Shown: piece after piece, positions 15,781 through 64,000 of the stretch
How positions within the stretch are numbered: the stretch's first letter is position 1
Layout of the letters: the number at the start of each line of letters is the position of its first letter
Origin: a virus
Strand: one strand, 5' to 3'
Length of the DNA stretch: 64,000 nucleotides
Virus record (IMG/VR): IMGVR_UViG_3300032050_010539
Notes under the pieces: model-generated
What the model was told of the DNA's origin: nothing
Databases searched by the model: none
The model's input: only the letters and a program-made list of their open reading frames with translations
Position numbers and translations under genes: made by a program

Positions 15781-15793
15781 CTGTTACTCCTAT

Positions 15794-16156: not shown

Positions 16157-16181
16157 TTGTTACTCCTGTTGGGTGAAATTA

Positions 16182-17162: not shown

Positions 17163-17191
17163 AATTTCCTCCTTGATTCATTACTTAAATC

Positions 17192-18007
17192 TTACATTAT
17201 TTTACTAGAATTGTCAAAAACCGGATTTAGTATGACTCCATCACTATCAAAAACTGTTCCAATAGTAGCAAGAGACGAAGTGACTAATCGGAGTAACTTG
17301 TCTTTTGTCTCTGCCAAATTCTTATCTTCTGTATTGCGCTGTAAACTTTGAGTATTATAAATTTTTTTAATTAATTCTTCACCAGCAGAAAAAACATTAC
17401 TATCTGAATATTTGGTTGTACTGGCTTCTTCAAAAAATATATTAATTCCCTCTGACCATTCAGCTTTTAACTCTGAGTCATCTACTTGCTCTAATAGATT
17501 ATTACTAAGAGATTGAAGTTCTTGAAGCTGCGTTTTGACATGAGGTGCTTTCGCATAAATTCTTCCCCAAGTGGCCAAAAAATCAAAAGTTTGTTCGGCA
17601 ATTAAAGGGGTTCCGTCCGCAAGACTAACTTTAAAAAAAGCGTCGAGGGCAGGGGCAAGAAGCGCAAAAATTGGTAATTCCCAACTATTGACAGAAGCGG
17701 TAAGAACAAGTAGGCTGATTCTAGATGGACTATCAGGGGGAATACTATTGCGAGATAAAATTGACGCAATAAATAACCAAACAACCTCATTGTTAATCTC
17801 GCTGTCATTCTGTAGAAGCTTACGTCCCAATACCCCTAAGCCGATTTCTGAAGCTTTGATCGATCCCAGTGCCAACAGATCTGCAAACTCTCTAACATGA
17901 CTATCCACCCTTCTCAGATTGCCGAAAGCTCTATCGATTTCTTCTCTAGCGTTATCACTATCGCCAGAGTCTAAAAATTGTTGTACTCTTCTAAGCATCG
18001 TTGTCAT
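17192..18007 (-). CDS. Helical hypothetical protein (possible immunity protein)
   Basis: 271 aa, coupled (TAATG) to the upstream 80-aa ORF. Confidence 0.6.
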   Translation of the reverse strand: MTTMLRRVQQFLDSGDSDNAREEIDRAFGNLRRVDSHVREFADLLALGSIKASEIGLGVLGRKLLQNDSEINNEVVWLFIASILSRNSIPPDSPSRISLLVLTASVNSWELPIFALLAPALDAFFKVSLADGTPLIAEQTFDFLATWGRIYAKAPHVKTQLQELQSLSNNLLEQVDDSELKAEWSEGINIFFEEASTTKYSDSNVFSAGEELIKKIYNTQSLQRNTEDKNLAETKDKLLRLVTSSLATIGTVFDSDGVILNPVFDNSSKIM

Positions 18008-39559: not shown

Positions 39560-40189
39560 ATGAAATTATCTCCAGTTATATTTGAGTTCCAGGAATTATT
39601 CAGCTCGTGGCGATACTACCTGTATATCACACCGCCGCGTTCTCTTCGTGGGGTCACGCCTGGCACCAGTCAAAGAATACATCTCCAGTCGACTATACCC
39701 CTACGTTTATTGCTGGCCCCCTGCGAGCCAGAGTATATACCACTGGCCTATCCCCAGTACAGCACACCGCGAGCCAGTGAGGCATTCAGGCTAGAGAATG
39801 CCTATAAGATAGAGATCTGGAGATGGAGGCAACAATCTAAGGTACCAGGGCGCGTAGTCCAGGATTATCAGGAGTCATTAGTAGACACACGATACTGGTG
39901 GATAGGTATGTCTACCAGTCGCGAGCGTATAGAGATAACACCAGTAAACAATATAATTAGTTTATTCGATTACCCCGATATACTAGCAGGCATCGTTGTT
40001 AAAGATGCACTGGGTGCTATTGTAGATTACACCGTCAAGGACCAGAGCACTAGCCGAGCAGAGCGCTTCAAGGCGGAGATAGAATTACCTAATAATGATC
40101 CCGTAGTAGTAGAATACGATACACCGGTAGTGCCGATAGAGGTCTCCTATACAGATAAGGTCAGTGAACAGTGGAATCGGATCTACTAA
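39560..40189 (+). CDS. Hypothetical phage protein
   Basis: 209-aa ORF. Confidence 0.6.
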   Translation: MKLSPVIFEFQELFSSWRYYLYITPPRSLRGVTPGTSQRIHLQSTIPLRLLLAPCEPEYIPLAYPQYSTPRASEAFRLENAYKIEIWRWRQQSKVPGRVVQDYQESLVDTRYWWIGMSTSRERIEITPVNNIISLFDYPDILAGIVVKDALGAIVDYTVKDQSTSRAERFKAEIELPNNDPVVVEYDTPVVPIEVSYTDKVSEQWNRIY

Positions 40190-43100: not shown

Positions 43101-46100
43101 ACAACGGGCAGCGGGGGCCACGGCAGCTCAAGAGGATCTATTCAGATTAATATCAGGGCGTAATAGTCGCTTCCTAACCTCATCGTTCTTCCGCAATAAG
43201 GGTATTATAGGTGCCTCTGTATTGGCTCTTATGAATGTACAGACTGGCCTAGCTAATATACTAGATGCCAGTGGGCCTAGTTTCCTGCGTTCTATTAACC
43301 TACAGTTCGGTGATGTCGACGTAGAGGAGGTACGCTACAATAACCGCAATCTAATACTCGAAGGGCCCGTCATGGGGGCCGCTTATACAGCATTAGCAGT
43401 AGCCGGGGGTTATGTAGGTAGTGAGGTATTCGGCAGTATGGCTATTAACCGGTATAGTCTCAGCGATGAGTTGTATGCCAGTGGTAACAGTCGTCTAATA
43501 TCCGCAGAGGCAGAAGGAGTACTGAAGCGAGGCACTCTAGTCAAGAAGGGTAATAGATTTATGACGTGGGGTCTAACTACAGCAGCGCTACTATGGGCCC
43601 CCCGCGTCATCACTGGTGTAGGTAACTTTATAATGAATATCTTCAACCGTATAACAGGGCAAGAGGGGCAGGTACTAGACGAGAACTACGCAACAGTAGG
43701 TAGTCTCCAGGCATGGAAACAATCAGTACTCAATAGGGTCAATACAGGCGGGCTAGTTGGCAATAGAACTGAGAGGACTTTAGAGGCATGGTCTGCATTC
43801 GTAGCAGGACGTATTAGTGCACACACACCAGTAGCAGCTATAAGTCAACGGGCCAAAACTATAGAGGTCTACGCGAGTCAGGCCCCCACGTCCTACATAC
43901 AGTTCTTCATAGCGGAGTCACGGCGCCGTGGTTCTGAGATGGATAAGGGCGTATACAGTTATAGTATGGGGGTACAATCAGCACCTGTACTGGGTATCTC
44001 TATGAGCGTGTCAGCCCCGCTGGCCTTTGACGCTAATAAGCCCTTCGCTGAGGCCTTCATATATAACCAGGAGAAGGATAACGTTATCAATTACATACAG
44101 AGCGCTGGTAATGTATCATTAGCAGTATCGTTAACGGCTGGGCTAGTTAGTCTGTCTGCTCTGTTACCAGAGTACGCGCGCTCTAAGATACTACGCGATC
44201 CTACGATAGGTGCGGGTGCGAAGGATCTCAGCAATAAGATGACTAACTTAGCAGCACTAGTAGATGACTGGGGCGGCCGGGCTATGAATGTACCCATAGC
44301 AGGTGCACGAACTGCGGTTGGTTCCTTCTGGCATTACTCAGGTAAGGTAGTAGACACAATGGCGGGGTTCAGCTACGGGGCACTACAGGGATTCGACAAG
44401 CTAGATAGAAGACTAGCTAAGGTCATAGCTCTGAGTAACTTTATTGTACCCCCTGTGCTAGGCGCACTATTTGGACTAACGGGCACGAGTCCACTAACAA
44501 GTTCCCTACTTGTAGGTACCTCTCTGGCCTTCGCATATTCCTTCGCTATGAAGCACGATCCATGGCGTAAGAAGGTAGCGGCTCTACAATCTCGTGTAGC
44601 GAGAATAACAGGTATGGAGGATATTAGGATAAGCCGCGGTATGCATACGGGTCTACGCAGATGGCGGGCCTATCGTATGCCACTACTTCTTGGCACTATA
44701 GCGGCCCTATTCCAAACTAAGACTGGGTGGAACGTAAGTGAGGGCATGGACGACAATGTCATGACTCGACTAGCTACAGTAGGGCTCTATGCCGGCGTAA
44801 ACGCTATGGCAGTAGTGGAACTAGGAGACCTCGGGCTAGACCCAGGCGCTACTATAGAGCGGTATCGTAGAATGAGGGCCAAGGTAGGTAAGATGCACCC
44901 ACTGAACCCACTAGGTATGTGGCGTAAGCTACGTCTAGCTTCTCTTGAGAGAGACATACGGTCTGACTTTAATACTGTAGAGACCTACCTATCAGACTAC
45001 CGTAATAATCGACGGGGCTACCATAGCTTCGATTTACTAGATGAACACCTGAAGACAGTTCACGGCACAGCATACCATAATGCTATGAATGAACACGGCC
45101 GGCGCCCGTCTAACTTCCAGGTACGGGACATTATAGACGAGGCAGGTAACTATAGACTAACAGATTACAGTGAGAACCTACGCACCCTAGTAGATAGCCG
45201 AGACTACCTCAAGTATAGAAACGCCAGAATACTGGGGCCCGGCGGTAGTAGACTATTGCGTTCTGCAGCGGCACTAGGCGCCGTGAACATAGCCGCTACT
45301 GCTCTTCTATTAGGTGTGGGTGCTATATTATCTAGTTCAGGTAATCAGGAGGAAGCAACAGCGGGCTTCTATAACGCTATGGATGACACGCCACTGGAGT
45401 TCGTGTCTAATGCATTCCGTCTAGTCACACGACGGGATATAGCTGTGGCACAGGATCCCCTGGAGCCTCTGGTTGTAATGGCAGATGGCGCCTATAAGCG
45501 TAAGCGCGGCGTGCGCTTAATCAACCCCATAGAGAGCAGCGTAGGGCGTATGAGTACTGCAATAGATAACCTACGCAACAGCTTTGTATTAAATGCCAGT
45601 AACCCATTTATGAGTGTCCTAGTATTTGGTACTAGTGTACGAGAGGGAGAGCTAGGCTCGCGTCAGACCTTCTACATGCAGCTACAGTCTACTAACCAGG
45701 ACATCAGTACGGCAGTATATTCTACAGCGCCAGCCTATATGTTCAAGATGGTCAAGGCAGGGGCCATGGGCCAGCTATACGCGCGCGACTACCGTAAGGC
45801 TAATATAACTGATGCCTCGATGAATAACTTATCAGAGGATCAGCGCAAGTTTATGGCCATCAGCGTAGTCAGTCTAACAGCACGATTAGACCCATTGACT
45901 GATAAGAACCGCCGGCGCGTAACTAGCCCATTCAATAGAGCCAGCCTGGCCCTCTATAGAGCGGATCCGTTGATGAACATAGCGTTGAGTAGTCGCCTGC
46001 AGGTAATACGCAACTTCGCATATCAGCGGCCTGAGTCATTAGTATCTGAGATGACTAATCTAGGTAATCCTGATGGTATGAATCCCCGGGATAGTAAAAA

Positions 46101-48867
46101 ACCCAAGTCATATCTAGACACGCTAATTGCATCGCTGAGTAAGGGAGACATGCGACTGTTAGCAGAAACTGCATTCCCTAGTCTGGCATCCAGAGTGGCT
46201 AACCCCCTCAACTTCGTACAGTACGAGAACTTCATTAAGTACTCGTCGGAACGGCGTACAGGAGGTAGACGGGTAGATATATATGCTGCAGATGGAGACT
46301 GGCTGGAGATGGGCGCGCCTAGATCAATGAGGACAGAGGAGAGCAATATCCTGGGTATGATAGGGTCCTTCTTAGTTAACTTCTGGGGTAAGATACCACT
46401 AATCAACACACCCATTATGACGAGTCTAGCTGGGGGCGTTGCAGCCACTATGATTGCGGGCGCGATAGGCGCGATGATGAGTTTATTTGGCGTACTAGAG
46501 GGAGGGAGGCAGGCACGAGCCATAGATAACGTTATGACTGAGCTGCGTGTTCTATGGGCCGGTGAGAGGGCGGAATACTTTGTTATAACGGCACCTCAGG
46601 CTAAGAGTCCCCTAGGAGAGAACCGTATGAAGTATGAGGTGAAGCGCGGCCGCTTCACTTATACGCTACACGCTAGTCCACCTGATGGCATGGGCGGAGA
46701 GGTAGGGAAGAGAATAGGTTATTTCCTCAATAGTTTTATGAGTATGACTGCAAATGACGAGATGGATACTCTAATGGCACGCGTATACGATGCCCCTATT
46801 ATAAACGAGAGCACTGTGCGCAGTATAACTGATAGGGATGATCTAGTACGTAGATTAGTAGATAGTCTAGATGACACTATAAGCCGCGGGCCCGATAGCT
46901 TCCTAACTAAGATACTAAACCTACTAGATAGCGATATATCAATTAATAATGGGCCCGCCCCGTTCTCACAGAAGGCCTACTCACTACTAGGATTAAGCGA
47001 GGAGACATTCAAGATACAGTATGGAGATGCTGACTCATTCCTAAGACGTCGTATACGCGAGGTCATCAAGGAGACGATAGAGCGCGAGGTTATACGTAAG
47101 ATATCTCTTAACCCCGACCCTGGTGATGCCTTCATGATATCATCACGCTTCCGTGGTCTGACATCAGACGAACAGATACGCATCATAAGCGCTAACGTAC
47201 TAAATGAACTAGGCTTCCTATTTAAGGATATCAAGGAGAAGGCGCTGATAATGGCTGGGGCCACTACTGATATAGAAGTATTACGTAGTCGCAATCAGAG
47301 AGTAGAGGACTGGGCCAATAAGCAGGGTGGCATTATAGATATAGAGCGGAAGAAGGCACCTCAATGGAAGCGCATATTTCACTGGGATAGCGGTAAGGCC
47401 CCCATAGCTGACCCTTCAGAGATAAAGGTCTACCCATTTTTTAAGGCGCGGCTCAGCGCACGGGGATCGCTTCAGGCATTAGGCGGCGGCATTATGACAG
47501 CCTGGGGTGGCATAGAGAGTCTAGATGTAGGTAGCGCATTCATGAGACTCGGCCGATCTCAACGGGATGAGCTATACACTGAGGCAGAGAAACAGCTACT
47601 TGAGGAGCATGCCGGTATGACAGTGCGTAACTCCATAACTGGTATAGTCACAGGTCTAGTGGCCGCTAAAGCAATAGGAGCTATAGGCGCGGCAGTCATA
47701 GGCGCCCCTCTAATAGCAGCAATAGGAGTGGTAGCAATAGGTGTAGGTATAGCAACAGGACTATTTGCGTGGGGCTATAAACACCTAGAGGCAGTCACCA
47801 AGGGCGATGCCTGGCAGGACTTCAGTCAAGCTAGTGAGAGATTCTGGACCGGCGTAGATAGAGCTATAGGCGACATAATCGGAGATAAGATACCCGGCTT
47901 TCTATCACTAGGTAATGATCAGGTAAAGGGCGTCATTACATCAGCTATAGGTACGGCACTAGGTGTAATGTCACTAGTCGGGGCGGCTGCAAGCTGGTTC
48001 AAAGGCGCGGGCTGGGGTCTAATAGCTAAATCAGGCCTGGGGGGCCTCCTAGGAGGAACGGCCATATCTGCTGTCCCAGGCGTACACGAGACACTGGCTC
48101 GTGGTAGTAGTGCCGCAGTAGAGGGTATGGGTAAGATAACAGGGCTGAACATGTTTGTCACGCCAACAGATTATCTACTAGCGCGTTATAAAGAAGGGCC
48201 AGGCGGTATGACACTAGCTATGCCGGGGCGGGCCTTTCAATACAACGCGGATAGATGGGCCGAAGCTAGCAATGACTCTGCTGGTAATAGGACGGCAGCC
48301 ATGCTGCTACCGACGCCTGCTGGAGGAGATAGTAACATACAATTACTAGATCCATTCACAGAGAGAGAGATAGCACGACGGGCCCGTCTCTTCAACGTAG
48401 AGATATTCGGACAGACCAGCTGGGTCAAGTCAGCGCGGGCCAGTAGTGATTGGGGCTCCATAAAAATATACGCTAGGCAGCAGATGCTAGGCCAGTATAA
48501 GAACAACATAGCGGCTATTCGCGCTACTGTATCAGACACTATGAATAAGCTAGCCCAGTCAGCTACTCCTTATAGTGCAGAGGTGGCCCGTCTAGCCATA
48601 GCTGTCAGTAAGACAGTAGGCAGGCCTGCACCAGCTACTCAATCTCGAGCCATTATAAGCAATAATGGTAACTTCAATCCCGAGCTCAAGGAGATAGCAG
48701 AGGAGGCAACACGGCGGGGCCATATAGCACTAATATCTCAGGAGACCAGCGCCGAGCAGAATGGTAATACAGTAACAGTCACAACAAGACCCAGTGACGA
48801 TAATAGTCTCTGGGTCAATAGGTTAGATGGTAAACTTGATAGAGAGGCAATGCTACGCATGGGCTAG
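40171..48867 (+). CDS. Giant multi-transmembrane virion protein (tape-measure/ejection-like) with N-terminal PLD-like domains
   Basis: 2898 aa with many Gly/Ala-rich hydrophobic helices. HxK motifs LMHSKLELITRED and THYNKHLF...YMGTRRFS..HNRE. Confidence 0.6.
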   Translation: MESDLLKQIEAASKYPSAGVGSLEGSSSRFGVSSLSETQRFLRDARPNSLEAALFSHNRFHSDFTLELLHDTFNKESFRAIGQERQDKFYQSMKPYIKMAEGIFTNEIDLYDEVGGTVVVDMTISKRESQALKAASNNLNVIPYTANKGQGTTLMHSKLELITREDGTDVGRVHTAPYITEYGTNALEVGAVVSGIAGAGAIISGRAPRLGIVGAIAAPLLMGAGVMLRNTNSSLLDIGLKSNKKDVFYETSNPKFVTELRTYMRSLAEGRELDTSRNRFILGESEAILAMTRDAQKANGIVLSPASWSLAQARDDDGNIISRDNNLDRNHYARLENFENTIVERASDIPILMATSGQVDSNVHHRLHQAGVIAGSNVGTHYNKHLFENIDEKGTDALYMGTRRFSAQHNREIMIRLTSEDDPAAFAYYKGMLLSDNKFNVSDIEMTQMGYTNKSFIRATTGTTISQLPSFLGASHFYEVAINNAARARVSGHLDWRESLESYTNRPGIATQNYLARAALNGAPSVVPDQVRDYDRALLSPGLGSLINEYTIMAGFGRLYKDEVGALPSIAGAFGAVLDRTLTYYGTFFDYDETRDSMVPVAGVYENALTFASSFVMTTAASMGLYFSIGIPLGYITAELNKSMVQGTIDSAVQKTAGKRYPQHLPILDIAPVDNFELAKYMQEVQGLSGGTLDNYYTNRINTLPALNNLFYRERGATFFEYITKPFILDVMNPYERGSAEDIKLRRSADAFHDSLRRPIGLETTFEERYNPVSREMEPFLVSLRATNIGFERQRELAILIDEVGASLPAAPWRWGWGEGKEDSRSFVSMAEVFSFSEMAESFHRILGTGSQSLNYIVSSSENNTSGMKGLLMRGGAMLGGVMRSTKARLQGNNLFMGIGPIATTNLAAEYKELMKLERQMLVENLLTWEVGINGQGSRQIGNVQTLEQRQLVAKFVDQLIVYNQAIQSSPYYQQAVQRAAGATAAQEDLFRLISGRNSRFLTSSFFRNKGIIGASVLALMNVQTGLANILDASGPSFLRSINLQFGDVDVEEVRYNNRNLILEGPVMGAAYTALAVAGGYVGSEVFGSMAINRYSLSDELYASGNSRLISAEAEGVLKRGTLVKKGNRFMTWGLTTAALLWAPRVITGVGNFIMNIFNRITGQEGQVLDENYATVGSLQAWKQSVLNRVNTGGLVGNRTERTLEAWSAFVAGRISAHTPVAAISQRAKTIEVYASQAPTSYIQFFIAESRRRGSEMDKGVYSYSMGVQSAPVLGISMSVSAPLAFDANKPFAEAFIYNQEKDNVINYIQSAGNVSLAVSLTAGLVSLSALLPEYARSKILRDPTIGAGAKDLSNKMTNLAALVDDWGGRAMNVPIAGARTAVGSFWHYSGKVVDTMAGFSYGALQGFDKLDRRLAKVIALSNFIVPPVLGALFGLTGTSPLTSSLLVGTSLAFAYSFAMKHDPWRKKVAALQSRVARITGMEDIRISRGMHTGLRRWRAYRMPLLLGTIAALFQTKTGWNVSEGMDDNVMTRLATVGLYAGVNAMAVVELGDLGLDPGATIERYRRMRAKVGKMHPLNPLGMWRKLRLASLERDIRSDFNTVETYLSDYRNNRRGYHSFDLLDEHLKTVHGTAYHNAMNEHGRRPSNFQVRDIIDEAGNYRLTDYSENLRTLVDSRDYLKYRNARILGPGGSRLLRSAAALGAVNIAATALLLGVGAILSSSGNQEEATAGFYNAMDDTPLEFVSNAFRLVTRRDIAVAQDPLEPLVVMADGAYKRKRGVRLINPIESSVGRMSTAIDNLRNSFVLNASNPFMSVLVFGTSVREGELGSRQTFYMQLQSTNQDISTAVYSTAPAYMFKMVKAGAMGQLYARDYRKANITDASMNNLSEDQRKFMAISVVSLTARLDPLTDKNRRRVTSPFNRASLALYRADPLMNIALSSRLQVIRNFAYQRPESLVSEMTNLGNPDGMNPRDSKKPKSYLDTLIASLSKGDMRLLAETAFPSLASRVANPLNFVQYENFIKYSSERRTGGRRVDIYAADGDWLEMGAPRSMRTEESNILGMIGSFLVNFWGKIPLINTPIMTSLAGGVAATMIAGAIGAMMSLFGVLEGGRQARAIDNVMTELRVLWAGERAEYFVITAPQAKSPLGENRMKYEVKRGRFTYTLHASPPDGMGGEVGKRIGYFLNSFMSMTANDEMDTLMARVYDAPIINESTVRSITDRDDLVRRLVDSLDDTISRGPDSFLTKILNLLDSDISINNGPAPFSQKAYSLLGLSEETFKIQYGDADSFLRRRIREVIKETIEREVIRKISLNPDPGDAFMISSRFRGLTSDEQIRIISANVLNELGFLFKDIKEKALIMAGATTDIEVLRSRNQRVEDWANKQGGIIDIERKKAPQWKRIFHWDSGKAPIADPSEIKVYPFFKARLSARGSLQALGGGIMTAWGGIESLDVGSAFMRLGRSQRDELYTEAEKQLLEEHAGMTVRNSITGIVTGLVAAKAIGAIGAAVIGAPLIAAIGVVAIGVGIATGLFAWGYKHLEAVTKGDAWQDFSQASERFWTGVDRAIGDIIGDKIPGFLSLGNDQVKGVITSAIGTALGVMSLVGAAASWFKGAGWGLIAKSGLGGLLGGTAISAVPGVHETLARGSSAAVEGMGKITGLNMFVTPTDYLLARYKEGPGGMTLAMPGRAFQYNADRWAEASNDSAGNRTAAMLLPTPAGGDSNIQLLDPFTEREIARRARLFNVEIFGQTSWVKSARASSDWGSIKIYARQQMLGQYKNNIAAIRATVSDTMNKLAQSATPYSAEVARLAIAVSKTVGRPAPATQSRAIISNNGNFNPELKEIAEEATRRGHIALISQETSAEQNGNTVTVTTRPSDDNSLWVNRLDGKLDREAMLRMG

Positions 48868-50891: not shown

Positions 50892-52034
50892 TCAATTTAA
50901 TAATCTATAGAGATCAAGTAGACTCTGATCCTCTGCGAGCTCAGGGTAACAATCATGGAGATAGGGACAAGGCTTACCAAAGGAATCGAGACAGGGACTA
51001 TAATTATCCTCAGGGTAATGGTGAGGGTAGAAACCTGCTGTGATTAATTTGTGCGTGCCAAAGAATGAGGTTAATACGCGATCCATGATGCTGCGGTCAA
51101 TAGGCGTTAGTACCAGACTACCCTCCCTGACGTTATAGATACCCATAGCATCAACGCGAGTGCCTGTCAATTTCTCATAGGCATAGGCATAGGCACAGAG
51201 CTGAGGGTTATACGCCAGCTTATCTGTAGTATAGGCAGACTTACTGGTCTTATAATCAACTATAGTTAGGCCATGAGAGGTGATTCCCACCCAGTCAATG
51301 AAGCCCAGGAGGTTGATACCGGCATCACCGCCGCAATCAGTCGGCATGGGCACCTCATTTATAATAGTGCCGTCATTATATCCACTGATAGGTAACTCAA
51401 CATAGATAGTGCGCTTAAACTCCTTAGGAGGAATAAAGGCCCGGCACAGGTTAAACGCGTCAGTCAGTGCACCAATAACATCAAGCTCAACATCCAATTC
51501 AGGATTAAGCATAAGCATATATTCATTAGCTGCATGCCGTAGAGCGAGGAGGGGCTCCTCTGCCTGTTTCCATGCAGTAGTAGACTGATAAGCGCTACTC
51601 ACCTTACCGGCAGCGGTGCGTATGGCATCGGGACCCTTATAGTCAGCGCGGGCTCTGTTATGCAACACTGCATAACCATCTACTAGGCCCATTAAGTAAC
51701 TAGAGATAGTGGTCTGGTCCGACGCAGGCGTATTAGATACAATGACACCAGCGGCCATAAGCGCGCTTATGTAGGTCTCCTCGAGGCACTGCTCTAGATT
51801 ATAATCATGTTCTACTTCAGGATCATAGTATAACTCGAGGGCCCCATGCACTAGGTTACCCAATAGAGTAGAGCGCGTAGCCCCACTCTTCCTATTGAGG
51901 TCAACGTATTTATGATAGAACTCCATCCCACAGCGGCGATATACGCGCAGTGCACTAACAGAGTAGTAGGGCGGGCGTTCTGCTACAGATCGACTAGTAA
52001 TAATATTAGAGGTCATCGCTAACCTCTGCGCCAT
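50892..52034 (-). CDS. PD-(D/E)XK exonuclease, RecB/Cas4-like
   Basis: YSVSAL....RC, GNLVH.ALE, GFID, IVDYKTS, QL.AYA and C-terminal C...CPY...C. Confidence 0.85.
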   Translation of the reverse strand: MAQRLAMTSNIITSRSVAERPPYYSVSALRVYRRCGMEFYHKYVDLNRKSGATRSTLLGNLVHGALELYYDPEVEHDYNLEQCLEETYISALMAAGVIVSNTPASDQTTISSYLMGLVDGYAVLHNRARADYKGPDAIRTAAGKVSSAYQSTTAWKQAEEPLLALRHAANEYMLMLNPELDVELDVIGALTDAFNLCRAFIPPKEFKRTIYVELPISGYNDGTIINEVPMPTDCGGDAGINLLGFIDWVGITSHGLTIVDYKTSKSAYTTDKLAYNPQLCAYAYAYEKLTGTRVDAMGIYNVREGSLVLTPIDRSIMDRVLTSFFGTHKLITAGFYPHHYPEDNYSPCLDSFGKPCPYLHDCYPELAEDQSLLDLYRLLN

Positions 52035-52605: not shown

Positions 52606-52803
52606 TTAATTGAATTGAAACAACCAGGGATTCCAAGTTAGTTCAGTATTATCATCTAACGTGACAACCACTTTGTTCTTATGATTAACGTAGGGGTTAC
52701 CCTTCGTGTTATAACTATAACCCGCTGACTTAGGATACGTTGATTGATATGCTATATTAGTAACTACTTTATTATTAATCTCATCACCTAGCTTGATGTG
52801 CAT
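52606..52803 (-). CDS. Small hypothetical protein
   Basis: 65 aa, overlaps the end of the radical SAM gene. Confidence 0.5.
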   Translation of the reverse strand: MHIKLGDEINNKVVTNIAYQSTYPKSAGYSYNTKGNPYVNHKNKVVVTLDDNTELTWNPWLFQFN

Positions 52804-53705
52804 GAGAAGCCTGCCTGGAAGTAATCGATTAGTGAAGTAGAGTCGAATGACGTGCGGTTATAACTACGACTAGTAGGAGCATACTGCTGCTTAACCGCAT
52901 CAATATACATAGTGAACTGGAAGTCATCGCCCATATAGAAGCGGGCCCACCCCTCATCAGTGAATAAACGTCTGAGCTCTAACTGTTCGATAGCCAGGTT
53001 ATCAAAGGAGAGATTACACCTGCCTATAAGAAAGGGTAGAGAACGCCGCCACTGCGCTATGCCTGCATCTACCTCAGGGCTATGATAATCTATACCGAAG
53101 CCGAAGTTCTTATAGCCTAGTACGAGTACCTTACTGGTTGCAGCACTGAGATTAACCAACTCATCGATTATACTAACGGGATGGATACCAGCGATTATGT
53201 GATACACGATGTTATCTGAGAGACGCAGTACTGATATCAGACTGCTATAGTTACTACTAGTAATTGAGATGCCGAGGCCCCGCACTAACTCCCGGCTTAC
53301 GATATCCTCTATTAGAGTATCGTAGCGATGTAGATGACCTTGGTTAACAGTAATGTTAGCTATAAGCCCGCGGGCCTTAAGTTCTACTAGGTAATCCACT
53401 ATATTAGGATGAGATAGTGGGTTACCACCTCCGTTTGCTAACTCGACCCCAGCAGGTATATCACTAAGGACATCGAGTAACCGTGTTAGGTCAGCGTGTT
53501 TACCATTACGAGTAGAACTCTCATGACAATATTTACATCCCATATCACAGTAGTCAGTGATCTTAATATCTATAGAGCAGGGATAGGCGGGGCGGGCCCC
53601 AACCACACTTGTAGTACGAACCAGGGTACCATCAGCATATAGAGTACACTCATAGTCACCATTGGTATAATGCGCTAAAGTTGTCGTTTCATTAAACTTA
53701 TTCAT
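52788..53705 (-). CDS. Radical SAM protein
   Basis: CDMGCKYCH (CxxxCxxC) and GGGNPL. No Cys-rich SPASM tail. Confidence 0.9.
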   Translation of the reverse strand: MNKFNETTTLAHYTNGDYECTLYADGTLVRTTSVVGARPAYPCSIDIKITDYCDMGCKYCHESSTRNGKHADLTRLLDVLSDIPAGVELANGGGNPLSHPNIVDYLVELKARGLIANITVNQGHLHRYDTLIEDIVSRELVRGLGISITSSNYSSLISVLRLSDNIVYHIIAGIHPVSIIDELVNLSAATSKVLVLGYKNFGFGIDYHSPEVDAGIAQWRRSLPFLIGRCNLSFDNLAIEQLELRRLFTDEGWARFYMGDDFQFTMYIDAVKQQYAPTSRSYNRTSFDSTSLIDYFQAGFSCTSS

Positions 53706-53709: not shown

Positions 53710-54045
53710 TTACGGATAATCAGTATTAATCCCCATGATCTCGCAGGCTTCGATTAATTTATCTATCCCCCCGAACCATCCGGCGGTAACATTAGAATGG
53801 CTCAACGTGCATCGGAGCTCTTCGATGAGGCATTCACCTCTACGCTCTTCTGTGTAGGCTTCTGGAGAAGGATATAATTCGCATTCCCAATCTCCTACTT
53901 GACGGTGAGTATCAATATCAAACTTTTTGTTATCAACCACTATATACTTTCGCCCGACTGATTTAATAGTTCCCCATGTACCATCCTCGTGGGGAATTAC
54001 TGCCCATACCCTGGCCCCCTTTTTAATAAAGTCTTTTGGCAACAT
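53710..54045 (-). CDS. Hypothetical protein (SH3-like beta barrel N-terminus)
   Basis: GTIKSVGRKYIVV pattern and GAGG RBS. Confidence 0.55.
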   Translation of the reverse strand: MLPKDFIKKGARVWAVIPHEDGTWGTIKSVGRKYIVVDNKKFDIDTHRQVGDWECELYPSPEAYTEERRGECLIEELRCTLSHSNVTAGWFGGIDKLIEACEIMGINTDYP

Positions 54046-55958: not shown

Positions 55959-56448
55959 TAAATAATCTCCTGTTAATATCAGATGATAGGAAGGCCTCTA
56001 ACCAGACAGGGCGGGGCTCTATAAGATAACAGGCCCGCGCTGCGATAAGAGGATGATAGAAGTAAGGTAAAAACTCTAGCTGAGCTAGTGCCTCTATATG
56101 ATGAGGCGTAGCTATACCTCTATGATCTAGTATACCCAGGGTAGGGTAGCGCTCGTGATATATATTTAGGTTATAGTTGTGCAGATACTCAGTAGTATCT
56201 AGACAGTACCAGGCAGCGCCAGAGCGGGGCCGCTCCATATCAGATAGGTAGCCTGTTATAATCGGCGGGCCCTCACTATCCTCACATAGATACTCTATGG
56301 CACGTCTATACATACGCCACTCCTGGGCCCAACTCGACTGTAGTGTTATAGTAACAGCACTATAGCGGCCATCAGCGTAACGCCCTACATAATAGGGGTA
56401 TATCATACAATCGCGAGCTGGTATACTCACGTGATAATTAGTCATCAC
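55948..56448 (-). CDS. Hypothetical protein
   Basis: 166-aa ORF coupled to the primase gene. Confidence 0.6.
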   Translation of the reverse strand: MMTNYHVSIPARDCMIYPYYVGRYADGRYSAVTITLQSSWAQEWRMYRRAIEYLCEDSEGPPIITGYLSDMERPRSGAAWYCLDTTEYLHNYNLNIYHERYPTLGILDHRGIATPHHIEALAQLEFLPYFYHPLIAARACYLIEPRPVWLEAFLSSDINRRLFNVC

Positions 56449-57638
56449 GATCCAAATAGTAGAGAGGCATATTCAAGGGGCCCTAATTGATTATCTACAT
56501 AAGGAGCCAGTAGCCCTAAGGGGGAATGAGTGGCAGTTAATACCCGCAATATATCTACGTGATGACTAATGTCGGGCCCCCATTGAGCTAGTAAATCATC
56601 TACGAATAGTATGCGGTTAGCATTAATAGTATCAGCAGCATTAACGCGAGGCTCTGCTACCAACCACTCATTAATATCCTTATAATCAGCAACCATATAC
56701 GTCATAAGCTCAGCTAATGGTAAGTTAATCTGCAGCTGAACTAGTTGAGGTATGATACGCACCCAGCTCTTATATACGCCAGCATGAGTAGGATGATCAT
56801 CGCTATACTTATCTGAGTCGAATATAAATGTGATATGACGGAAGGGCTTGAATTTACTGGTGTGACATAATAGATACTCCAGACCCAATAACCCCACTAC
56901 AGGTAAACCACGACCTACTAGTGATGTGGCATCAGGCGGGCCCTCAACTATATATAGCTCGCGAGCTGGGTGCTTACTATACTCCTTAAGACAATGTTCT
57001 AGATAGAGATAGCGCTTACTATTAATAGCGGCCCGCGTATCCTTATAACGGGGGGCCCTCTCACTACTACCTATATAGCGACCAACCATATGGACTAGAT
57101 GACCTCGTGTATCTCGTATAGGGAATATAATGCGTTCCCTATAGTAATCCTCGCCGTCCTCCTTAATCAGACCCTCGCGGGCTAATGCCTCATGATCTAT
57201 ATCGAATTGACGTAGACCACCAGGAGGAGCATACCCTATACCAATACTACGAGCTAGATCGAGAGACCAGCCCCGCCGTAGTATATAATCCTGAGCAGCA
57301 GGCGTAGTATCAAGATAATAGTGATAGGCCTCTAGCGCGCTCTCTAGTACTATACTGCGAGCATCCATAACCTCGCGGGCCTGACGTATACCGGCGCGGG
57401 CCTCTAACTGTTGCATAGCCCCAGCATAATCAAGCTTAGTATGCCAACGCCAGGCATTAACCAGGCCCATACCTGCGTTCAACTCACAACTAGTCCTCCA
57501 GCACTTCATATAGTGCGGATATACACTCAGCTTACCGCGGCCCCCACAAGCAGGACAATCATTAGTACCATGCCGTAGATTTAGTAGCTCTGGTATAGTT
57601 AGCCGCTCCATTATCAGTTGTTCATTCTCTCTCGTCAC
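56445..57638 (-). CDS. DNA primase (DnaG-like)
   Basis: Zn finger CPACGG...C...C, RIIFPIRD..G, and TOPRIM motifs IVEGPPDA and FDSD. Confidence 0.9.
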   Translation of the reverse strand: MTRENEQLIMERLTIPELLNLRHGTNDCPACGGRGKLSVYPHYMKCWRTSCELNAGMGLVNAWRWHTKLDYAGAMQQLEARAGIRQAREVMDARSIVLESALEAYHYYLDTTPAAQDYILRRGWSLDLARSIGIGYAPPGGLRQFDIDHEALAREGLIKEDGEDYYRERIIFPIRDTRGHLVHMVGRYIGSSERAPRYKDTRAAINSKRYLYLEHCLKEYSKHPARELYIVEGPPDATSLVGRGLPVVGLLGLEYLLCHTSKFKPFRHITFIFDSDKYSDDHPTHAGVYKSWVRIIPQLVQLQINLPLAELMTYMVADYKDINEWLVAEPRVNAADTINANRILFVDDLLAQWGPDISHHVDILRVLTATHSPLGLLAPYVDNQLGPLEYASLLFGS

Positions 57639-57739: not shown

Positions 57740-57898
57740 TCACTTACCCGTAGCCCATTCCATAAGAATATCTCGGTCAACATACCTCACCCACGTCATC
57801 CATACTTCCGTTCTTAAGGGATACCTTCGACATGGTTCAGGCCATATATTTATATCTCGTCTATCGCGCCACATATCGCCCTCTAATATAAATTGCAT
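57740..57898 (-). CDS. Possible 52-aa Trp-rich ORF between the array and primase
   Basis: Manual translation MQFILEGDMWRDRRDINIW...EWATGK. Overlaps the end of the last array unit. Confidence 0.3.
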   Translation of the reverse strand: MQFILEGDMWRDRRDINIWPEPCRRYPLRTEVWMTWVRYVDRDILMEWATGK

Positions 57899-58053
57899 AC
57901 TTCCAGTCTGTAATAAAACAAAGCAAGTTCGAAAGAATTACAATCATAAAACTTACGCATTAAGTGATATACCTCAATGGGGGGTTCAGGCATAAACATA
58001 GAGGCCTTCAGCTTATTGTGCAGAGTCCAATCGTTATGATTAATAGTATTCAT
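57883..58053 (-). CDS. Terminal array peptide, 56 aa (not in the ORF track)
   Basis: MNTINHNDWTLHNKLKASMFMPEPP...LALFYYRLEVCNLY. Confidence 0.5.
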   Translation of the reverse strand: MNTINHNDWTLHNKLKASMFMPEPPIEVYHLMRKFYDCNSFELALFYYRLEVCNLY

Positions 58054-58875
58054 TCAAACAAACCTTTATGATTCAATCTAGAGTAAAACGAACCGACATG
58101 ATTCCTGCTCATTAAATAAGAGCGGGTTACTAAGTAATTTGCAGGCTCAATAAGTATAAAGGCCTTAAGCTTATTGTGTAGAGACCAATCATTAATCATA
58201 ATCATCTTCATTGAAATCATCTTCATTGAAATAACCGCCCTTATGTATAATGTCATCCTTACTCATTCTCATCTAAAATGTGTTAGACAATTCACTTACC
58301 AGTCTATAGTAAAACTGGTCGACAGAGGTAATAAGTATAGAGGCCTTCAGCTTATTGTGCAGAATCCAAATATTACAATTTAGTCTTCATCGAAATAATT
58401 GTATAGCAGTCTATAGTAAAATTGATCTATAAAAGTAATAAGTATAGAGGCCTTGAGCTTATTGTCGATAGTCCAGTCGTAAAGCGAACCCAATTTGAAA
58501 TAATCATTATTACACAGAACCCAATTATTATATAAAATCCAATAAGTAGAAATTCTCTTCATCAAAACAAACCCTTATGATTCAATCTAGAGTAAAACGA
58601 ACCGACCTTATTAAATAAGACCAGGTTACTAAGTAATTTGCCCCAACGAAAGACTCAATAAGCATAGAGGCTTTTTATTATTTGTCTCAGTGGAAGGTTC
58701 AGTAATAAGTATAGAAGCTTTAAGCTTATTGTGTAGAGTCCAATCACACAAACTCTTATGACCCAATCTAGAATAAAACAAACCGACATAGTACCTGCTC
58801 ATTAAATAAGACCAGATACCATAATTTGCCTTAACGGAAGGCTCAATAAGCATAAAGGCCTCAAAGGTCCAATCA

Positions 58876-59028
58876 TTAATCATAATCATCTTCATCGAAA
58901 TAACCGTCCTCATTTAGAATAATAAACCAATAAAACCGGGTTACTAAATAATTTGCCCCAACGGAAAACTCAAGCATAGGGGCCTTAATAAGCTTATTGT
59001 GCAGAGACCAATCATTAATCATCTTCAT
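58876..59028 (-). CDS. Array peptide, 50 aa (not in the ORF track)
   Basis: MKMINDWSLHNKLIKAPMLEFSVGANYLVTRFYWFIILNEDGYFDEDDYD. Confidence 0.5.
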   Translation of the reverse strand: MKMINDWSLHNKLIKAPMLEFSVGANYLVTRFYWFIILNEDGYFDEDDYD

Positions 59029-61031
59029 CGAAATAATCATCTTTATATAGAATGTCGTATATCGCAGCTCTTAGTCTATAGTAAAACCCGCCGGTAGAGA
59101 TAATAAGTGTACGGGCCTTTAACTTATTGTTGAGAGTCCAGTCGTAAAACAAAGCAAGTTTAAAAACTTTACAATTAACCATCTTCATAAAATGCAACTC
59201 TTATGATTCAATCTAGAGTAAAACGAACCGACATAATACCTGCCCATTAAATAAGACTCGGTTACTAAGTAATTTGCCCCAACGGAAAACTCAATAAGCA
59301 TAGAGGCCTCAAGCTTATTGTGCAGAGACCAATAATCATTAATCATCTTCATCGAAATAACCGTCCTCATATTCATCAAATTGGCCATCCTCAAGATAAT
59401 AACCGCCCTCATCTAGAATATCATCTTTATCTAGGATGTTTTCTAACATATTTATCAATCTACAGTAAAACCGGAAGATAGAGCCGCAACACTTGCTTAG
59501 TTTAGGAGTATAAATCTCGAAACCCATCTCTTCATAATAATGAAACAAGCGCAAGGCATTGAGATAATCATTATTCAAAATCCAAGGTAACAGACAATCG
59601 TTAGAAACATTCTTCATTGAAATAACCGTCCTTATATAAAATATCATTCTTATTCATCCTCATCTAGAATGTTATGTATAACACACTTACCAGTCTATAA
59701 TAAAACTGGTCGACAGAGATAATAAGTATAGAGGTCTTCAACTTATTGTGCAGAGTCCGAAAGTAATTTGCCCCAACGGAAGGCTCAATAAGCATAGAAG
59801 CTCTAAGCTTATTGTTTAGAGTCCACCCTTCACATATAATCATCTTCACTAGAATAACCGTCCTTATGTATAAAGTAATCCTTATTCATTCTCATCTAGA
59901 ATGTGTTAGACAGTCTATAGTAAAACAGGTCTACAGAGGTAATAAGTATAAAGGCCTTCAGCTTATTGTGCATAATAAAGGCAAATTTGAAAGATTTATA
60001 GCTTACTAAATCATTTATCTCAGCGAAAGACTCAGTAGTAAGTATAAGGTTATTATGTGTAATCCAATATTTAGAGATAGTGTTCATTAAAGTAATCATC
60101 CTCATTTAGAATATCACTCTCATCTAGAGCGTTATATATAAAAGCCACTAGTCTATAGTAAAGCCGGTTGATAGAGCACTTGCTTAATTCAGGAATATGA
60201 CTCTCGAGGCCCACATCCTCATAATAATAAAACAAGTAATTAAGCTTGTTACAACTAATTGCTCTCATTGAAGTAATCGCCCCCCATTCAGAAAGCCATA
60301 TATCCCAAATTCTCCCATTCTATAATAAAACCAGGCGAGTCCCCCAGGACTATAAGCAAAATACAATTTACCTAATAATACCTGTAGGTCAACAGACGGA
60401 TCAGTAATAGGTATAGGTATATTTAACCTATTACGTGGGGCCCATTTGCTACAATTAATTATCTTCATCGAAATAATCATCCTCATCTAGAATGTTATAT
60501 AACACATCTCCTAATCTATGATAAAATACGTTGATAGGAACATGTAACTTGTTCAATTCAGGGATATAGACCTCGATACCCATGTTTTCATAGTAGTAAC
60601 GATAAGACCATAGATGGTATTTTCTATTACGAGGAGCCCAATTATTACAACTAATCATCTTCATCGAAATAATCGTCCTTATCTAGAGCGCTATATAATC
60701 TAGAGTAGAACGAACGGACGTAGAACCTGCTTATTAAATAAAACCTAGGTACTAAGCCGGTTGTTCTAACGGAAGGCTCAATAAGCATAGAGGCTCTAAG
60801 CTTATTGTGTAGAGTCAACTCATCACATATAATAGTCTTCATAAAAACATACTCCTACCCAGTCTGAAGTAAAACAAAGATGTCGAAGCAGACACCCCCA
60901 CCCAAAAAATACTGTAATGCGTAGCGAGGTTGAAATAATTATGATTATAATACTTTCTTACATTTATATCAGTGGAAGGCTCTCTACTAGATATAGATAC
61001 CCTAAGTTTGTTATTAAGCATAGGCCAATAA

Positions 61032-61187
61032 CTAATCATCTTCATCGAAATAATTATCCTCATATAGAATGTCGTATATCGTAGCTTTTAGTCTATAGTA
61101 AAACCCGCCGGTAGATAATAACTTTAGCTTATTCTTGGGAGTCCAGTCGTAAAACAAAGCAAGTTTGAAAACGTTACAATTAATCAT
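61032..61187 (-). CDS. Array peptide, 51 aa (not in the ORF track)
   Basis: MINCNVFKLALFYDWTPKNKLKLLSTGGFYYRLKATIYDILYEDNYFDEDD. Confidence 0.5.
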   Translation of the reverse strand: MINCNVFKLALFYDWTPKNKLKLLSTGGFYYRLKATIYDILYEDNYFDEDD

Positions 61188-61732
61188 CTTTATAGAATAT
61201 ATACTTATTTACTATGTCACATACCAGTCTATAATAAAATCGGTCGACAGCATAAAACCTTAATTCAGGAGTATAGGTATCGATATCCATACGCTCACAA
61301 TAATAAAAGAAGTAATTAAGCTTGTTATAACTAATTGCCCTCATTGAGGTAACCGCCCCCCATAAAGGCCATATAACCCAAATCCTCCCAGCCTATAATA
61401 AAACCAGGCGAGTCTCCCAGGACTACAAGCAAAATACAATTTACCTAATAATCCTTGTAGGTCAACAGACGGATCAGTAATAGGTATAGGTATATTCAAG
61501 TTATTACGTGGGGCCCAATTGTTACAATTAATCATCTTCATTAAAGTAATTGTCCTCATATAGAATGCTATACAACACTACTCCCGCTAGTCTATGGTAA
61601 AACCTGGCAGGCCCCCCAGCGTTATAAGTATGAAAGTTATAGTTATAGAAACTGTAGTATAAACTATCACTGTCTACTAAAATCGACGGGTCAGTGATAT
61701 ATGTATTTAGTTTACTACGTGAAGGCCAACCA

Positions 61733-61927
61733 TTAATCATCTTCATCGAAATATAACAATCTATGGTAAAATCAAACAGTCCCTCCTCTAGAATCATCAA
61801 GATAGAAGTTATAGAATAACTTATTATCTGCTATCAGAGGGTTAGTAATGGGTACAGGTGCATTCCATGCATACGAAACCCATTCAATATCACGCGGAGC
61901 CCAACCGTTAGAATTAATTATCTTCAT
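61733..61927 (-). pseudogene. Array unit with internal TGA at 61772-61774
   Basis: Reads GGTV*FYHRLLYFDEDD, compared with GGPAWFYYRLLYFDEDY in the sister unit at 62604. Confidence 0.65.
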
Positions 61928-62092
61928 AGAAATAATGATAGGTTACGGTAAACGCAAGCGACTCCTCCGGCACTATAAGTGTGAAATTTATAGTATAAAT
62001 AATTACGGTTTGCTATCAACGGGTTGGTAATAGGTACAGGTATATCCCGTATATGCGCAGCCCTTCTATTACGAGAGGCCCAATTGTTACAA

Positions 62093-62251
62093 TTAATCAT
62101 CTTCATCGAAATAATCATCCTCATTCAAAGGTAACACTACTGCTCCTGCCAGTCTATAATAAAACATAGTGAGCCCCCAATAAACTCTAATAGGCATAGA
62201 TATATTCAACTTATGACGTGGGACCCATTTGTTACTACCAACTATCTTCAT
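62093..62251 (-). CDS. Array peptide, 52 aa (not in the ORF track)
   Basis: MKIVGSNKWVPRHKLNISMPIRVYWGLTMFYYRLAGAVVLPLNEDDYFDEDD. Confidence 0.55.
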   Translation of the reverse strand: MKIVGSNKWVPRHKLNISMPIRVYWGLTMFYYRLAGAVVLPLNEDDYFDEDD

Positions 62252-62409
62252 AGAAATCGTCCTTAGCGAACAGTGTCAGTCTATAATAAAATAACATGAT
62301 AGAAGTTTTGTAGTGGTAACGATAAAAGCTATAGTATAAACTATCACTGTTTGCTAAAACCGACGGGTCAGCAGCAAGTATATTCAACTCATTACGTAAA
62401 GGCCAATTG

Positions 62410-62604
62410 TTAATAATCTTCATCGAAATATAACAATCTATAGTAAAACCAAGCAGGCCCTCCACCATGATAAAGATAGAAGTTATAGAATAACTTATTA
62501 TTATCTGCTACTGGAGGAACAATAATAGGTACAGGTGCATTCCATTCATACGGAGCCCATTTAATAGTACGCGGAGCCCAATCATTACAATCAATCATCT
62601 TCAT
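62410..62604 (-). CDS. Array peptide
   Basis: Intact unit ending YFDEDY. Confidence 0.6.
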   Translation of the reverse strand: MKMIDCNDWAPRTIKWAPYEWNAPVPIIVPPVADNNKLFYNFYLYHGGGPAWFYYRLLYFDEDY

Positions 62605-62881
62605 AGAAATAATCCCCCTCCCCTAGAAAGTCATATAACAAACATGCTAGTTTATAATAAAACAAGTCGATAGGAACATGTAACTTGTCTAATTCAGGGA
62701 TATAGGCCCCGAGACCCATGCTTTCATAGTAGTAACGATAGAACCATAGATAGTATAGATTATCACCATTTGGTAAAATCGGTGGGTCAGTAATAGGTAT
62801 CGGTATACTCAACTTATTACGTGCAGTCCAACAATCGTTATTACTATGAGGCGCCCAATTGTTACAATTAATCATCTTCAT
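62591..62881 (-). CDS. Array peptide (long composite unit)
   Basis: Intact 96-aa unit ending YFYEDD. Confidence 0.6.
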   Translation of the reverse strand: MKMINCNNWAPHSNNDCWTARNKLSIPIPITDPPILPNGDNLYYLWFYRYYYESMGLGAYIPELDKLHVPIDLFYYKLACLLYDFLGEGDYFYEDD

Positions 62882-63094
62882 AGAAGTAATAATAGGTTGT
62901 AGTTATCTTCATCTAGAAAGCTATACAACACTACTCCTACTAGTCTATTGTAAAATTTGGCGGGCCCTCCATCATGATAAAAATAGAAGTTATAGAATAA
63001 CTTATTATCTGCTATTGGAGGGACAGCAGTAGGTACATATGCCCCCCATCCAGACGGAGCCCATTTAATATTACGCAGAGCCCAATTATTACAA

Positions 63095-63292
63095 TTAATC
63101 TTCTTCATAAAAATAATGATAGGTTATATTACGGTAAACGCAAGCGACTCCTCCGGCACTATAAGTGTGAAAGTTATAGTATAAATAATTATGGTTTACT
63201 ATTAACGGGTTAGTAATAGGTATGGGTGCGGCCTCTTCATACGGAACCGGCTTATTACGAGGAGCCCAATCGTTACAATTAATCTTCTTCAT
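63095..63292 (-). CDS. Array peptide
   Basis: Intact unit ending YFYEED. Confidence 0.6.
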   Translation of the reverse strand: MKKINCNDWAPRNKPVPYEEAAPIPITNPLIVNHNYLYYNFHTYSAGGVACVYRNITYHYFYEED

Positions 63293-63470
63293 AGAAGTAA
63301 TATTCTGCCCCTGTCAGTATATAATAAAACATATCAAGCCCCCCAGTATCATTATAAACATAAAAACTATCGTATAAATTATCAATGCTCATTAGAGGCG
63401 GATTAGTGGTAGGTATGTATGGAGTCCACGCATAACGAGGAGCCCAATTGTTAGAATTAATCTTCTTCAT
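63279..63470 (-). CDS. Array peptide (start corrected to MKKIN)
   Basis: Intact unit with 14-nt overlaps on both sides. Confidence 0.6.
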   Translation of the reverse strand: MKKINSNNWAPRYAWTPYIPTTNPPLMSIDNLYDSFYVYNDTGGLDMFYYILTGAEYYFYEED

Positions 63471-63696
63471 CGAAATAAGTGTCCTCATATAGAATGTTGT
63501 ATAGCACACTGAAATAACCACCCTCATTTAGAATGTTATATAACATATATGACAGTCTATGATAAAACCAGACGAGTCTCTCAGGATTATAAGCAAAAAA
63601 GCATAATCCCTGTAGGCCAACAGGCGGGTTAGTAATAGGTATAAGTATACTCGACTGATTACGTGGGGCCCAATTGTTAGAATTAATCTTCTTCAT
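63457..63696 (-). CDS. Array peptide (MKKIN...YFDEED)
   Basis: Intact unit. Confidence 0.6.
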   Translation of the reverse strand: MKKINSNNWAPRNQSSILIPITNPPVGLQGLCFFAYNPERLVWFYHRLSYMLYNILNEGGYFSVLYNILYEDTYFDEED

Positions 63697-63892
63697 CGAA
63701 ATAATTGTCCTTATATAGAATATATAATACTATTCCCGACAGTCTATAGTAAAATATAGCAAGTCCTCTAGAATTATAAAGATAGAAGCTATAGTATAAA
63801 TTATTGATATTTGCTACTGGCGGGGCAGTGATAGGTATAGGTGCAATCCATTCACTACACGGGGCCCAGCAATTTGGATTAATTGTTTTCAT
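63683..63892 (-). CDS. Array peptide (MKTIN...FYYRL...YFDEED)
   Basis: Intact unit with a 14-nt overlap to the next unit. Confidence 0.6.
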   Translation of the reverse strand: MKTINPNCWAPCSEWIAPIPITAPPVANINNLYYSFYLYNSRGLAIFYYRLSGIVLYILYKDNYFDEED

Positions 63893-64000
63893 AGAGATAG
63901 TTATCCTCAGCTAAAATATCAATATCCTGTCTGTAGTAAAACGCCTTGAAATAAAAGAAGTTGATAGAGACATATAACTTGTGTAATTCAAGGGTATAGG

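Follow-up and report, generated by a model that had tools for sequence, protein, structure and literature searches.

The window analysed here, a 64,000-nucleotide stretch of the IMG/VR virus record IMGVR_UViG_3300032050_010539, comes from a relative of the Microcystis phages Ma-LMM01, MaMV-DC and their kin (array identity about 77%), and this report concerns a 21-nt motif that recurs at the gene boundaries of a tandem array of small genes at its end. Among the lytic phages of Microcystis aeruginosa, a toxic bloom-former, those of the Ma-LMM01 type have been studied best. The array reaches past the end of the window; in the transcribed orientation, it sits immediately 5' of the DNA primase gene. 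Its G+C content is 0.34–0.36, compared with about 0.47 in the rest of the window. It is orthologous to the array of MaMV-DC and to gp137–gp157 of Ma-LMM01, which are all annotated as "hypothetical protein", with annotated overlaps of often 14 nt and in some cases 32 nt.

57883–64000, minus strand: tandem array of at least 30 small paralogous genes (45–100 aa, phrog_4393), from open reading frame (ORF) lists and PHROG matches
56445–57638, minus strand: DNA primase (DnaG-type; Pfam DNAG_N, 2e-11), the first conserved gene downstream of the array

The primase gene, whose protein is 94–99% identical in six IMG/VR contigs, was used as the anchor for retrieving related arrays, and the comparison set comprised eight related phage arrays. 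Family ORFs were located with a protein hidden Markov model (HMM) on stop-to-stop translations, and therefore without selection for codon choice; the HMM identified 221 ORFs in the eight arrays. The encoded proteins begin with a conserved N-terminus (MK[MKI]IN-C-N-x-W) and end in an acidic-aromatic tail (L-x-E-D-x-Y-F-D-E-D-D) that is likewise conserved; the part in between varies and contains an aromatic FYYRL helix. All ten window members tested match phrog_4393, a family of unknown function, with E-values of 7e-27 to 4e-3 over profile positions 23–91 of 96. Pfam gave no match for the array proteins, an ESM Atlas search returned scores of 0.80 only, which is chance level, and AlphaFold2 with a 121-sequence alignment produced a low-confidence two-helix model with a predicted local distance difference test score (pLDDT) of 60.

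A profile search of 1.84 billion representatives yielded 74 matches, small family members save for one spurious 543-aa repeat protein. In large protein collections the family forms 270 clusters at 90% identity and 74 at 50%, all of them small, and the named clusters belong to Microcystis phages without exception. Among 50,697 phage records, the only carriers are seven Ma-LMM01-type isolates. The array is kept at the same locus, with 20–37 units, in every known genus member, and takes up about 4% of a Ma-LMM01-type phage genome. Paralogues inside the window are at most 86% identical, indicating that the array is old and not a recent amplification. It is a tandemly duplicated, fast-evolving micro-protein family specific to Ma-LMM01-type (Fukuivirus) Microcystis phages. 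No description of the array was found in the literature searched; a mention in Yoshida et al. 2008 is possible.

An earlier note, made from the sequence of this window, had listed ten 14-nt overlaps between neighbouring genes. All ten are present, on the minus strand, and three further ones were found at 61032–61045, 60455–60468 and 59015–59028. The two-frame reading proposed there is also correct, the motif encoding Y-F-D/Y-E-D/E-D-stop at the end of one gene and M-K-M/K-I-N at the start of the next. The junctions of the window are as follows.

63683–63696, minus strand: 14-nt overlap, YFDEED-stop / MKKIN
63457–63470, minus strand: 14-nt overlap, YFDEED-stop / MKKIN
63279–63292, minus strand: 14-nt overlap, YFYEED-stop / MKKIN
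63095–63108, minus strand: 14-nt overlap, YFYEED-stop / MKKIN
62591–62604, minus strand: 14-nt overlap with TGA stop, YFYEDD-stop / MKMID
62410–62423, minus strand: 14-nt overlap, YFDEDY-stop / MKIIN
62093–62106, minus strand: 14-nt overlap, YFDEDD-stop / MKMIN; with the upstream in-frame ATG at 62124 it would be 32 nt
61528–61541, minus strand: 14-nt overlap, YFNEDD-stop / MKMIN; upstream in-frame ATG at 61559
61032–61045, minus strand: 14-nt overlap with TAG stop, YFDEDD-stop / MKMIS
60651–60664, minus strand: 14-nt overlap with TAG stop, YFDEDD-stop / MKMIS
60455–60468, minus strand: 14-nt overlap, YFDEDN-stop / MKIIN
59339–59352, minus strand: 14-nt overlap, YFDEDD-stop / MKMIN
59015–59028, minus strand: 14-nt overlap, YFDEDD-stop / MKMIN
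58876–58895, minus strand: 20-nt overlap variant, YFDEDDYD-stop / MKMIMIN, with a 6-nt insertion within the junction
62878–62881, minus strand: degenerate junction with a frameshifted upstream gene (DEDNYNLLLLL-stop), a 4-nt ATGA overlap and the junction DNA kept
61924–61927, 61341–61344, 60839–60842 and 60265–60268, minus strand: further degenerate ATGA-type junctions

The window thus holds 13 overlaps of 14 nt, five of 4 nt (ATGA) and one of 20 nt, the remainder being gaps or decayed ends, and the canonical overlap joins only about half of the neighbouring pairs. A degenerate version of the 21-mer matched 16 times at one mismatch or fewer, and a looser version 20 times, with 0 matches expected in each case (100 shuffles for the former). 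The exact 21-mer has 0 matches in 185,579 bacterial and archaeal genomes, and within IMG/VR the motif is confined to Ma-LMM01-like contigs. The minus-strand consensus of the junction, ...CTAGATGAGGATGATTATTTCGATGAAGATGATTAATTGTAAC..., reads L-D-E-D-D-Y-F-D-E-D-D-stop in the upstream frame and M-R-M-I-I-S-M-K-M-I-N-C-N in the +1 frame. The tail contains an internal 18-nt repeat (DEDDYF/DEDD), and about 30% of units therefore carry a further in-frame ATG 18 nt upstream (ATGAGGAC, M-R-x-I-I-S-M-K-M-I-N), in which case the overlap may be 32 nt instead of 14.

Of the 213 neighbouring pairs in the eight phages, 114 have an overlap of exactly 14 nt, followed by overlaps of 4 nt and of 20 nt in 7 pairs each. 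The stop codon of the 14-nt pairs stands at a fixed place and occurs in three forms (TAA 87, TGA 19, TAG 8). At Ile4, where the third-position T is also the first base of the stop, ATT is used in 152 of 157 cases (97%), its share within gene bodies being 42%. The AT of the ATG is provided by a codon that reads NAT in 115 of 115 cases with a varied first base (G 49, A 44, T 22), and the last tail codon is NAT in 59 of 59. Such free variation beside frozen positions, together with free synonymous sites elsewhere, argues against simple inertia or homogenisation. When conservation is compared with both frames, as the earlier note had proposed, the start and stop codons show signs of selection, and the junction is genuinely dual-coding. 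The case that would have undone the claim, a DNA site conserved independently of either frame, is contradicted by variation that follows codon logic, with a variable base before a fixed ATG and a stop that changes form. Information-content periodicity was discarded as a test, being confounded by motif ascertainment and A+T bias. The junction is a genuine and highly non-random gene boundary coded in two frames, and its 14 nt are maintained by the demands of both reading frames together with the start and stop signals. The next start of the ancestral unit presumably lay 11 nt before the previous stop in the +1 frame, an arrangement that duplication would have copied more than 100 times.

The gene bodies have the appearance of coding sequence. 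At the composition of the array, a stop is expected about every 14 codons and the chance of 65 open codons is 0.008, yet about 30 ORFs of such length tile one strand, and the same is seen in all eight arrays. Synonymous codons vary at conserved residues, including Leu60 (CTG 79, CTA 55, TTA 31, TTG 28), Tyr57 (TAT 106, TAC 95), the tail Tyr (TAT 79, TAC 42) and Pro20, where all four codons are used; Trp9 is nearly invariant. Frameshifted or truncated tails occur in many units.

Several irregularities of the array were recorded. A two-gene block is present twice on the minus strand at about 86% identity (60071–60486 and 61180–61559), consisting of an MKxINC...IPIPITDP unit ending in GGRL(P/L)Q, an ATGA overlap, and an MRAIS...YYxE...PEL unit; the 96-aa unit at 62591–62881 resembles the two halves in unsplit form. 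Additional internal repeats occur in some tails and starts (59339–59647, 63457–63696 and 58050–58256), among them a long tail, ILDKDDILDEGGYYLEDGQFDEYEDGYFDEDD, a duplicated LYNIL...YF segment, and MKMISMKMIMIN. As judged from these repeats, frequent out-of-register slippage or recombination inside the junction zone is suggested.

The eight arrays share only scattered, partly non-collinear patches of more than 90% identity; the flanking primase is 94–99% identical. Clustering of the unit bodies gave 47 shared cassette types and 62 singletons, and conserved-order runs of cassettes are broken by unit-sized gains, losses and reorderings. Starts of similarity blocks fall at −15 to 0 of a junction ATG in 17.5% of cases, compared with 5.9% under the null, and block ends fall at +15 to +60 in 37.5%, compared with 16.6%. 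Between Ma-LMM01 and MaMV-DC, the block borders lie at +41/+44, −41/−41, −30/−30 and +46 to +49, which correspond to the edges of the conserved N-terminus and tail. Variant arrays were also found in contigs of 2025 freshwater metagenomes: one joint, from 62642 to 63726, skips five units and lies −38 and −30 from junction ATGs, and other joints lie at −8/−41 and −18. In all four runs, the De Bruijn contigs are interrupted at junctions. For 34 of the window's 59 exact repeats of at least 20 nt, both copies lie on the junction core, a region covering 12% of the array.

The junction is thus the main, though not the sole, shared homology for the exchange of whole cassettes. Breakpoints between related phages are enriched two- to threefold near junctions in the comparison that the earlier note had proposed, with a sizeable minority inside the bodies. 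Its suggestion that the cassettes are plug-and-play holds in that they occur in differing contexts, with borders enriched about 40 nt either side of the junction ATG. It does not hold in the strict form that recombination would always produce a complete gene, because body breakpoints yield chimeric units; plug-and-play is a tendency, not a rule. The roughly 40 nt on either side of the junction, in part demonstrably, would be the longest sequence common to otherwise diverged units, and therefore the commonest substrate for unequal or ectopic homologous recombination. Recombination in this zone would add, delete and reorder whole cassettes; at other shared motifs it would produce chimeric units, and many copies would decay.

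The earlier note had further assigned the motif a triple duty as acidic tail, ribosome-binding site and start codon. Of 175 junctions in the eight arrays, 119 (68%) carry a Shine-Dalgarno (SD)-like 4-mer, GAGG or AGGA, almost always 11–12 nt from the ATG, and GAG is favoured over GAA at the SD-like codon (80% vs 44%). An SD-like motif precedes only 13 of the 36 long genes of the window phage, with spacers mostly of 3–10 nt, and the junction spacing does not match that of these other genes. The GAGGA element therefore stands where it was reported, about 11 nt before the ATG, but its role in ribosome binding is doubtful, and two-thirds of the triple duty, namely the tail and the start, is supported. 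At −12, GAGGA would assist initiation weakly at best.

A search for RNA structure hiding the start codon found none in 12 junctions folded against shuffled controls. In 11 of the 12, the junction RNA was less structured than the shuffles (z of +0.29 to +1.75), the other giving −0.14; the start is accordingly accessible, and coupling is not enforced by any structure. No terminator-like site was found at any junction, and no sense-strand promoter-like site was found at the junction. Weak antisense sigma-70-like matches (ATTACA, 18 nt, AATAAT) were observed on the plus strand at 60644–60673, 62086–62115, 62584–62613 and 63088–63117, and may simply follow from the repeated sequence.

During Ma-LMM01 infection, gp137–157 all fall in the "middle" transcription class B5, with log2 fragments per kilobase per million (FPKM) of about 7.3–9.8 at 3–6 h, and the primase belongs to the same "middle" class (PMC5780444 Table S3). 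The same table lists BPROM "middle" promoters for several array genes. Several of its predicted "−10 boxes" (GTTTATTATAGATTAGA) resemble FYYRL-coding DNA, for example upstream of Ma-LMM01 gp153, so that internal promoter calls may be a coding by-product, or a further double use. An aquatic metatranscriptome library covers the whole array at 99% identity or more; its contigs carry no information on strand, expression level or transcript ends and, as DNA may be present in such libraries, are no proof of transcription. The array is probably transcribed as a middle-class polycistron without terminators between units.

The commonest gene overlaps are −4, −1 and −8, and among the rarer long ones the −8/−11/−14 phase is favoured (PMC10666635). 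Co-directional pairs whose downstream gene starts within or beside the upstream stop occur in the window (13 exact 14-nt overlaps and five ATGA overlaps), and translational coupling at the −14 overlap is plausible. Two routes to downstream translation are conceivable: reinitiation by a ribosome that has terminated 11 nt beyond the ATG, or direct initiation at the junction, which is A/U-rich and unstructured.

Two known kinds of organisation, overlap coupling and modular shuffling through recombination, come closest to this junction. Termination-reinitiation pairs (Huber et al. 2019, 2023; PMC6728339, PMC10666635; review PMC12548453) are likewise co-directional, share a transcript and have the start inside the upstream ORF end, and the −14 spacing falls in the favoured long-overlap phase (−8, −11, −14). 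However, their overlaps are usually 4, 1 or 8 nt, compared with 14 and sometimes 32 here with conserved peptide ends in both frames, and they join subunits of one complex, whereas here the same junction recurs more than 100 times between paralogues and coupling is putative.

The promoter and stem-loop (PeSL) cassettes of T4-type hyperplastic regions (Arbiol et al. 2010, PMC2839356; PMC4122927) resemble the array in the short conserved flanks of small, fast-changing ORFs. PeSLs flank small non-essential ORFs and serve as substrate for whole-gene insertion, deletion or replacement between close relatives (PMC2839356; PMC4122927). They are non-coding promoter plus terminator stem-loops that make each ORF its own transcription unit, whereas the array element is coding and the cassettes are paralogues. 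Neither the sigma-70-like early promoter nor the terminator stem-loop that lie between ORFs in PeSL regions has a sense-strand match at the array junction, whose RNA is unstructured. In the array, borders between close relatives show the two- to threefold enrichment near junctions and the sizeable minority inside bodies given above. The T-even internal proteins Ip1–3 and relatives (PMC12373910) are also polymorphic small accessory proteins in which only a short terminal peptide, an N-terminal leader, is conserved; each of Ip1–3 is reported to block a different defence enzyme of the host as part of an arms race. They have no sequence similarity to the array proteins, which are middle-class, paralogous throughout and also share a C-terminal tail. 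The likeness lies in conserved ends around a variable middle; nothing indicates packaging, injection or an anti-defence role for the array proteins, and membership of the array in either the T-even internal-protein or the PeSL family is not supported. The poxvirus "gene accordions" are a case of adaptive tandem gene amplification. The amplification of T4 tifA (PMC9391042), in which short flanking homologies recombine to alter the copy number, a change probably driven by host defence, is similar in kind, but tifA and accordion arrays are recent, near-identical and unstable, whereas the Microcystis-phage array is old, highly diverged and fixed in the genus.

We consider it likely that the motif is a gene-cassette boundary in a tandemly duplicated micro-protein family, combining dual coding, a substrate for recombination and a putative role in translation. 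A number of observations weigh against this. The copies are related, so the codon-usage P values, which leave their shared ancestry out of account, are overstated. For the tail Phe, TTC is used in 91% of cases, compared with 23% in bodies, and position −2 is C in 79%; neither the 14-nt overlap nor the optional upstream ATG accounts for either preference. The match to the core, ATGAAGATGATT, is 0.87 in junctions without a tail-frame ORF and 0.90 in canonical ones, and since the core is equally kept without the tail frame, N-terminal or initiation constraint, or recent ancestry, may explain most of its conservation. Roughly half of the junctions are non-canonical or decayed. For close orthologues, the ratio of nonsynonymous to synonymous polymorphism (pN/pS) is 0.57 in frame and 0.63–0.73 in out-of-frame controls, which makes it uninformative as proof of coding and indicates that constraint on the gene bodies is weak or mixed at short range. 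Because the junction is unstructured, independent initiation is equally possible; reinitiation drops steeply with distance, and the published tests did not include −14 overlaps (PMC10666635). One 2025 metagenome joint lies inside gene bodies (+71/+39), and the breakpoint enrichment is only two- to threefold, with endpoints that are not independent events and with breakpoints in the bodies.

A rival reading is a passive by-product, in which the ends are conserved for protein needs, for instance as a docking or addressing peptide common to the family, and the overlap is a frozen accident of the ancestral unit, spread by duplication and with no special role in translation or recombination. Both ends are indeed conserved beyond the overlap with free synonymous sites, the core is kept in junctions that lack a tail-frame ORF, and the breakpoint enrichment is modest. 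We nevertheless regard this as unlikely, given that the place of the stop is kept through three stop codons and the 14-nt spacing in 114 of the 213 pairs, that long exact repeats are concentrated at the junction, and that joints and block borders cluster around it; moreover, however the overlap arose, the longest shared tracts are bound to be preferred by homologous recombination. The conserved third-codon positions in and near the core, which equal the first and second, might instead point to a junction that is chiefly a nucleic-acid signal (a promoter, RNase processing site or binding site of a phage or host factor) with coding secondary, as might the C at −2 and the TTC that coding leaves unexplained, the weak antisense promoter-like matches on several junctions, and the BPROM "middle" promoters of several Ma-LMM01 array genes. 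With a free base before an invariant ATG, a stop that varies in form and not in place, no sense-strand promoter-like site or terminator at the junction, no stable RNA structure, and a motif that occurs only in these arrays (0 in 185,579 genomes; Ma-LMM01-like contigs only in IMG/VR), such a signal is very improbable. It is scarcely credible that the array consists largely of non-functional repeat DNA in decay, a graveyard of pseudogenes with the junction as its least-diverged remnant. The many frameshifted or truncated tails, the pN/pS that does not differ from out-of-frame controls, the low G+C and the low-confidence AlphaFold model (pLDDT 60) would fit such decay, but ORFs far beyond chance length tile one strand in all eight phages, amino-acid conservation stands alongside synonymous variation, the array is held at the same locus with 20–37 units in every known genus member, and it is transcribed during infection.

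The conserved ends of the proteins probably also have a protein-level role, speculatively as a common docking or addressing signal. Microcystis has an unusually large defence repertoire. A bolder and rather doubtful proposal is that the array is an evolved combinatorial library in an arms race with these defences, and the junction a universal adaptor, the coding counterpart of the PeSL. More than 100 variable micro-proteins would then carry common "address" peptides at the start (MKMINxNxW) and the end (DxYFDEDD), and one reason for keeping the adaptor would be that two intact, co-translated genes re-emerge from any crossover inside it.

In the surrounding sequence, the minus strand downstream of the primase carries genes for a radical SAM protein (52788–53705), a phage ProQ C-terminal-like protein (53710–54045) and a PD-(D/E)XK nuclease (50892–52034). 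A precursor array for ribosomally synthesised and post-translationally modified peptides was considered and rejected: the only maturase candidate is the radical SAM protein, 4 kb away, whose generic core matches are far below every family cut-off, with no evidence of a SPASM domain. In Ma-LMM01, a transposase/resolvase pair (gp135/gp136; 12088–13846 of the compared Ma-LMM01 sequence) lies between primase and array, and is absent from this boundary in the window and in MaMV-DC. Elsewhere in the window, a second low-G+C island (0.33–0.35) at 14000–18000 contains small minus-strand ORFs without the junction motif, and a single 2898-codon ORF on the plus strand (40171–48867) is orthologous to the cut gp120 of Ma-LMM01.

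If the junction is both a coding element and a recombination adaptor, phage cassettes would be shuffled without the need of non-coding flanking signals. With more than 100 natural replicates of one overlap, the array suits experiments on the mutual constraint of overlapping genes. The combination of conserved ends and hypervariable middles makes the family a candidate for host-interaction or anti-defence functions.

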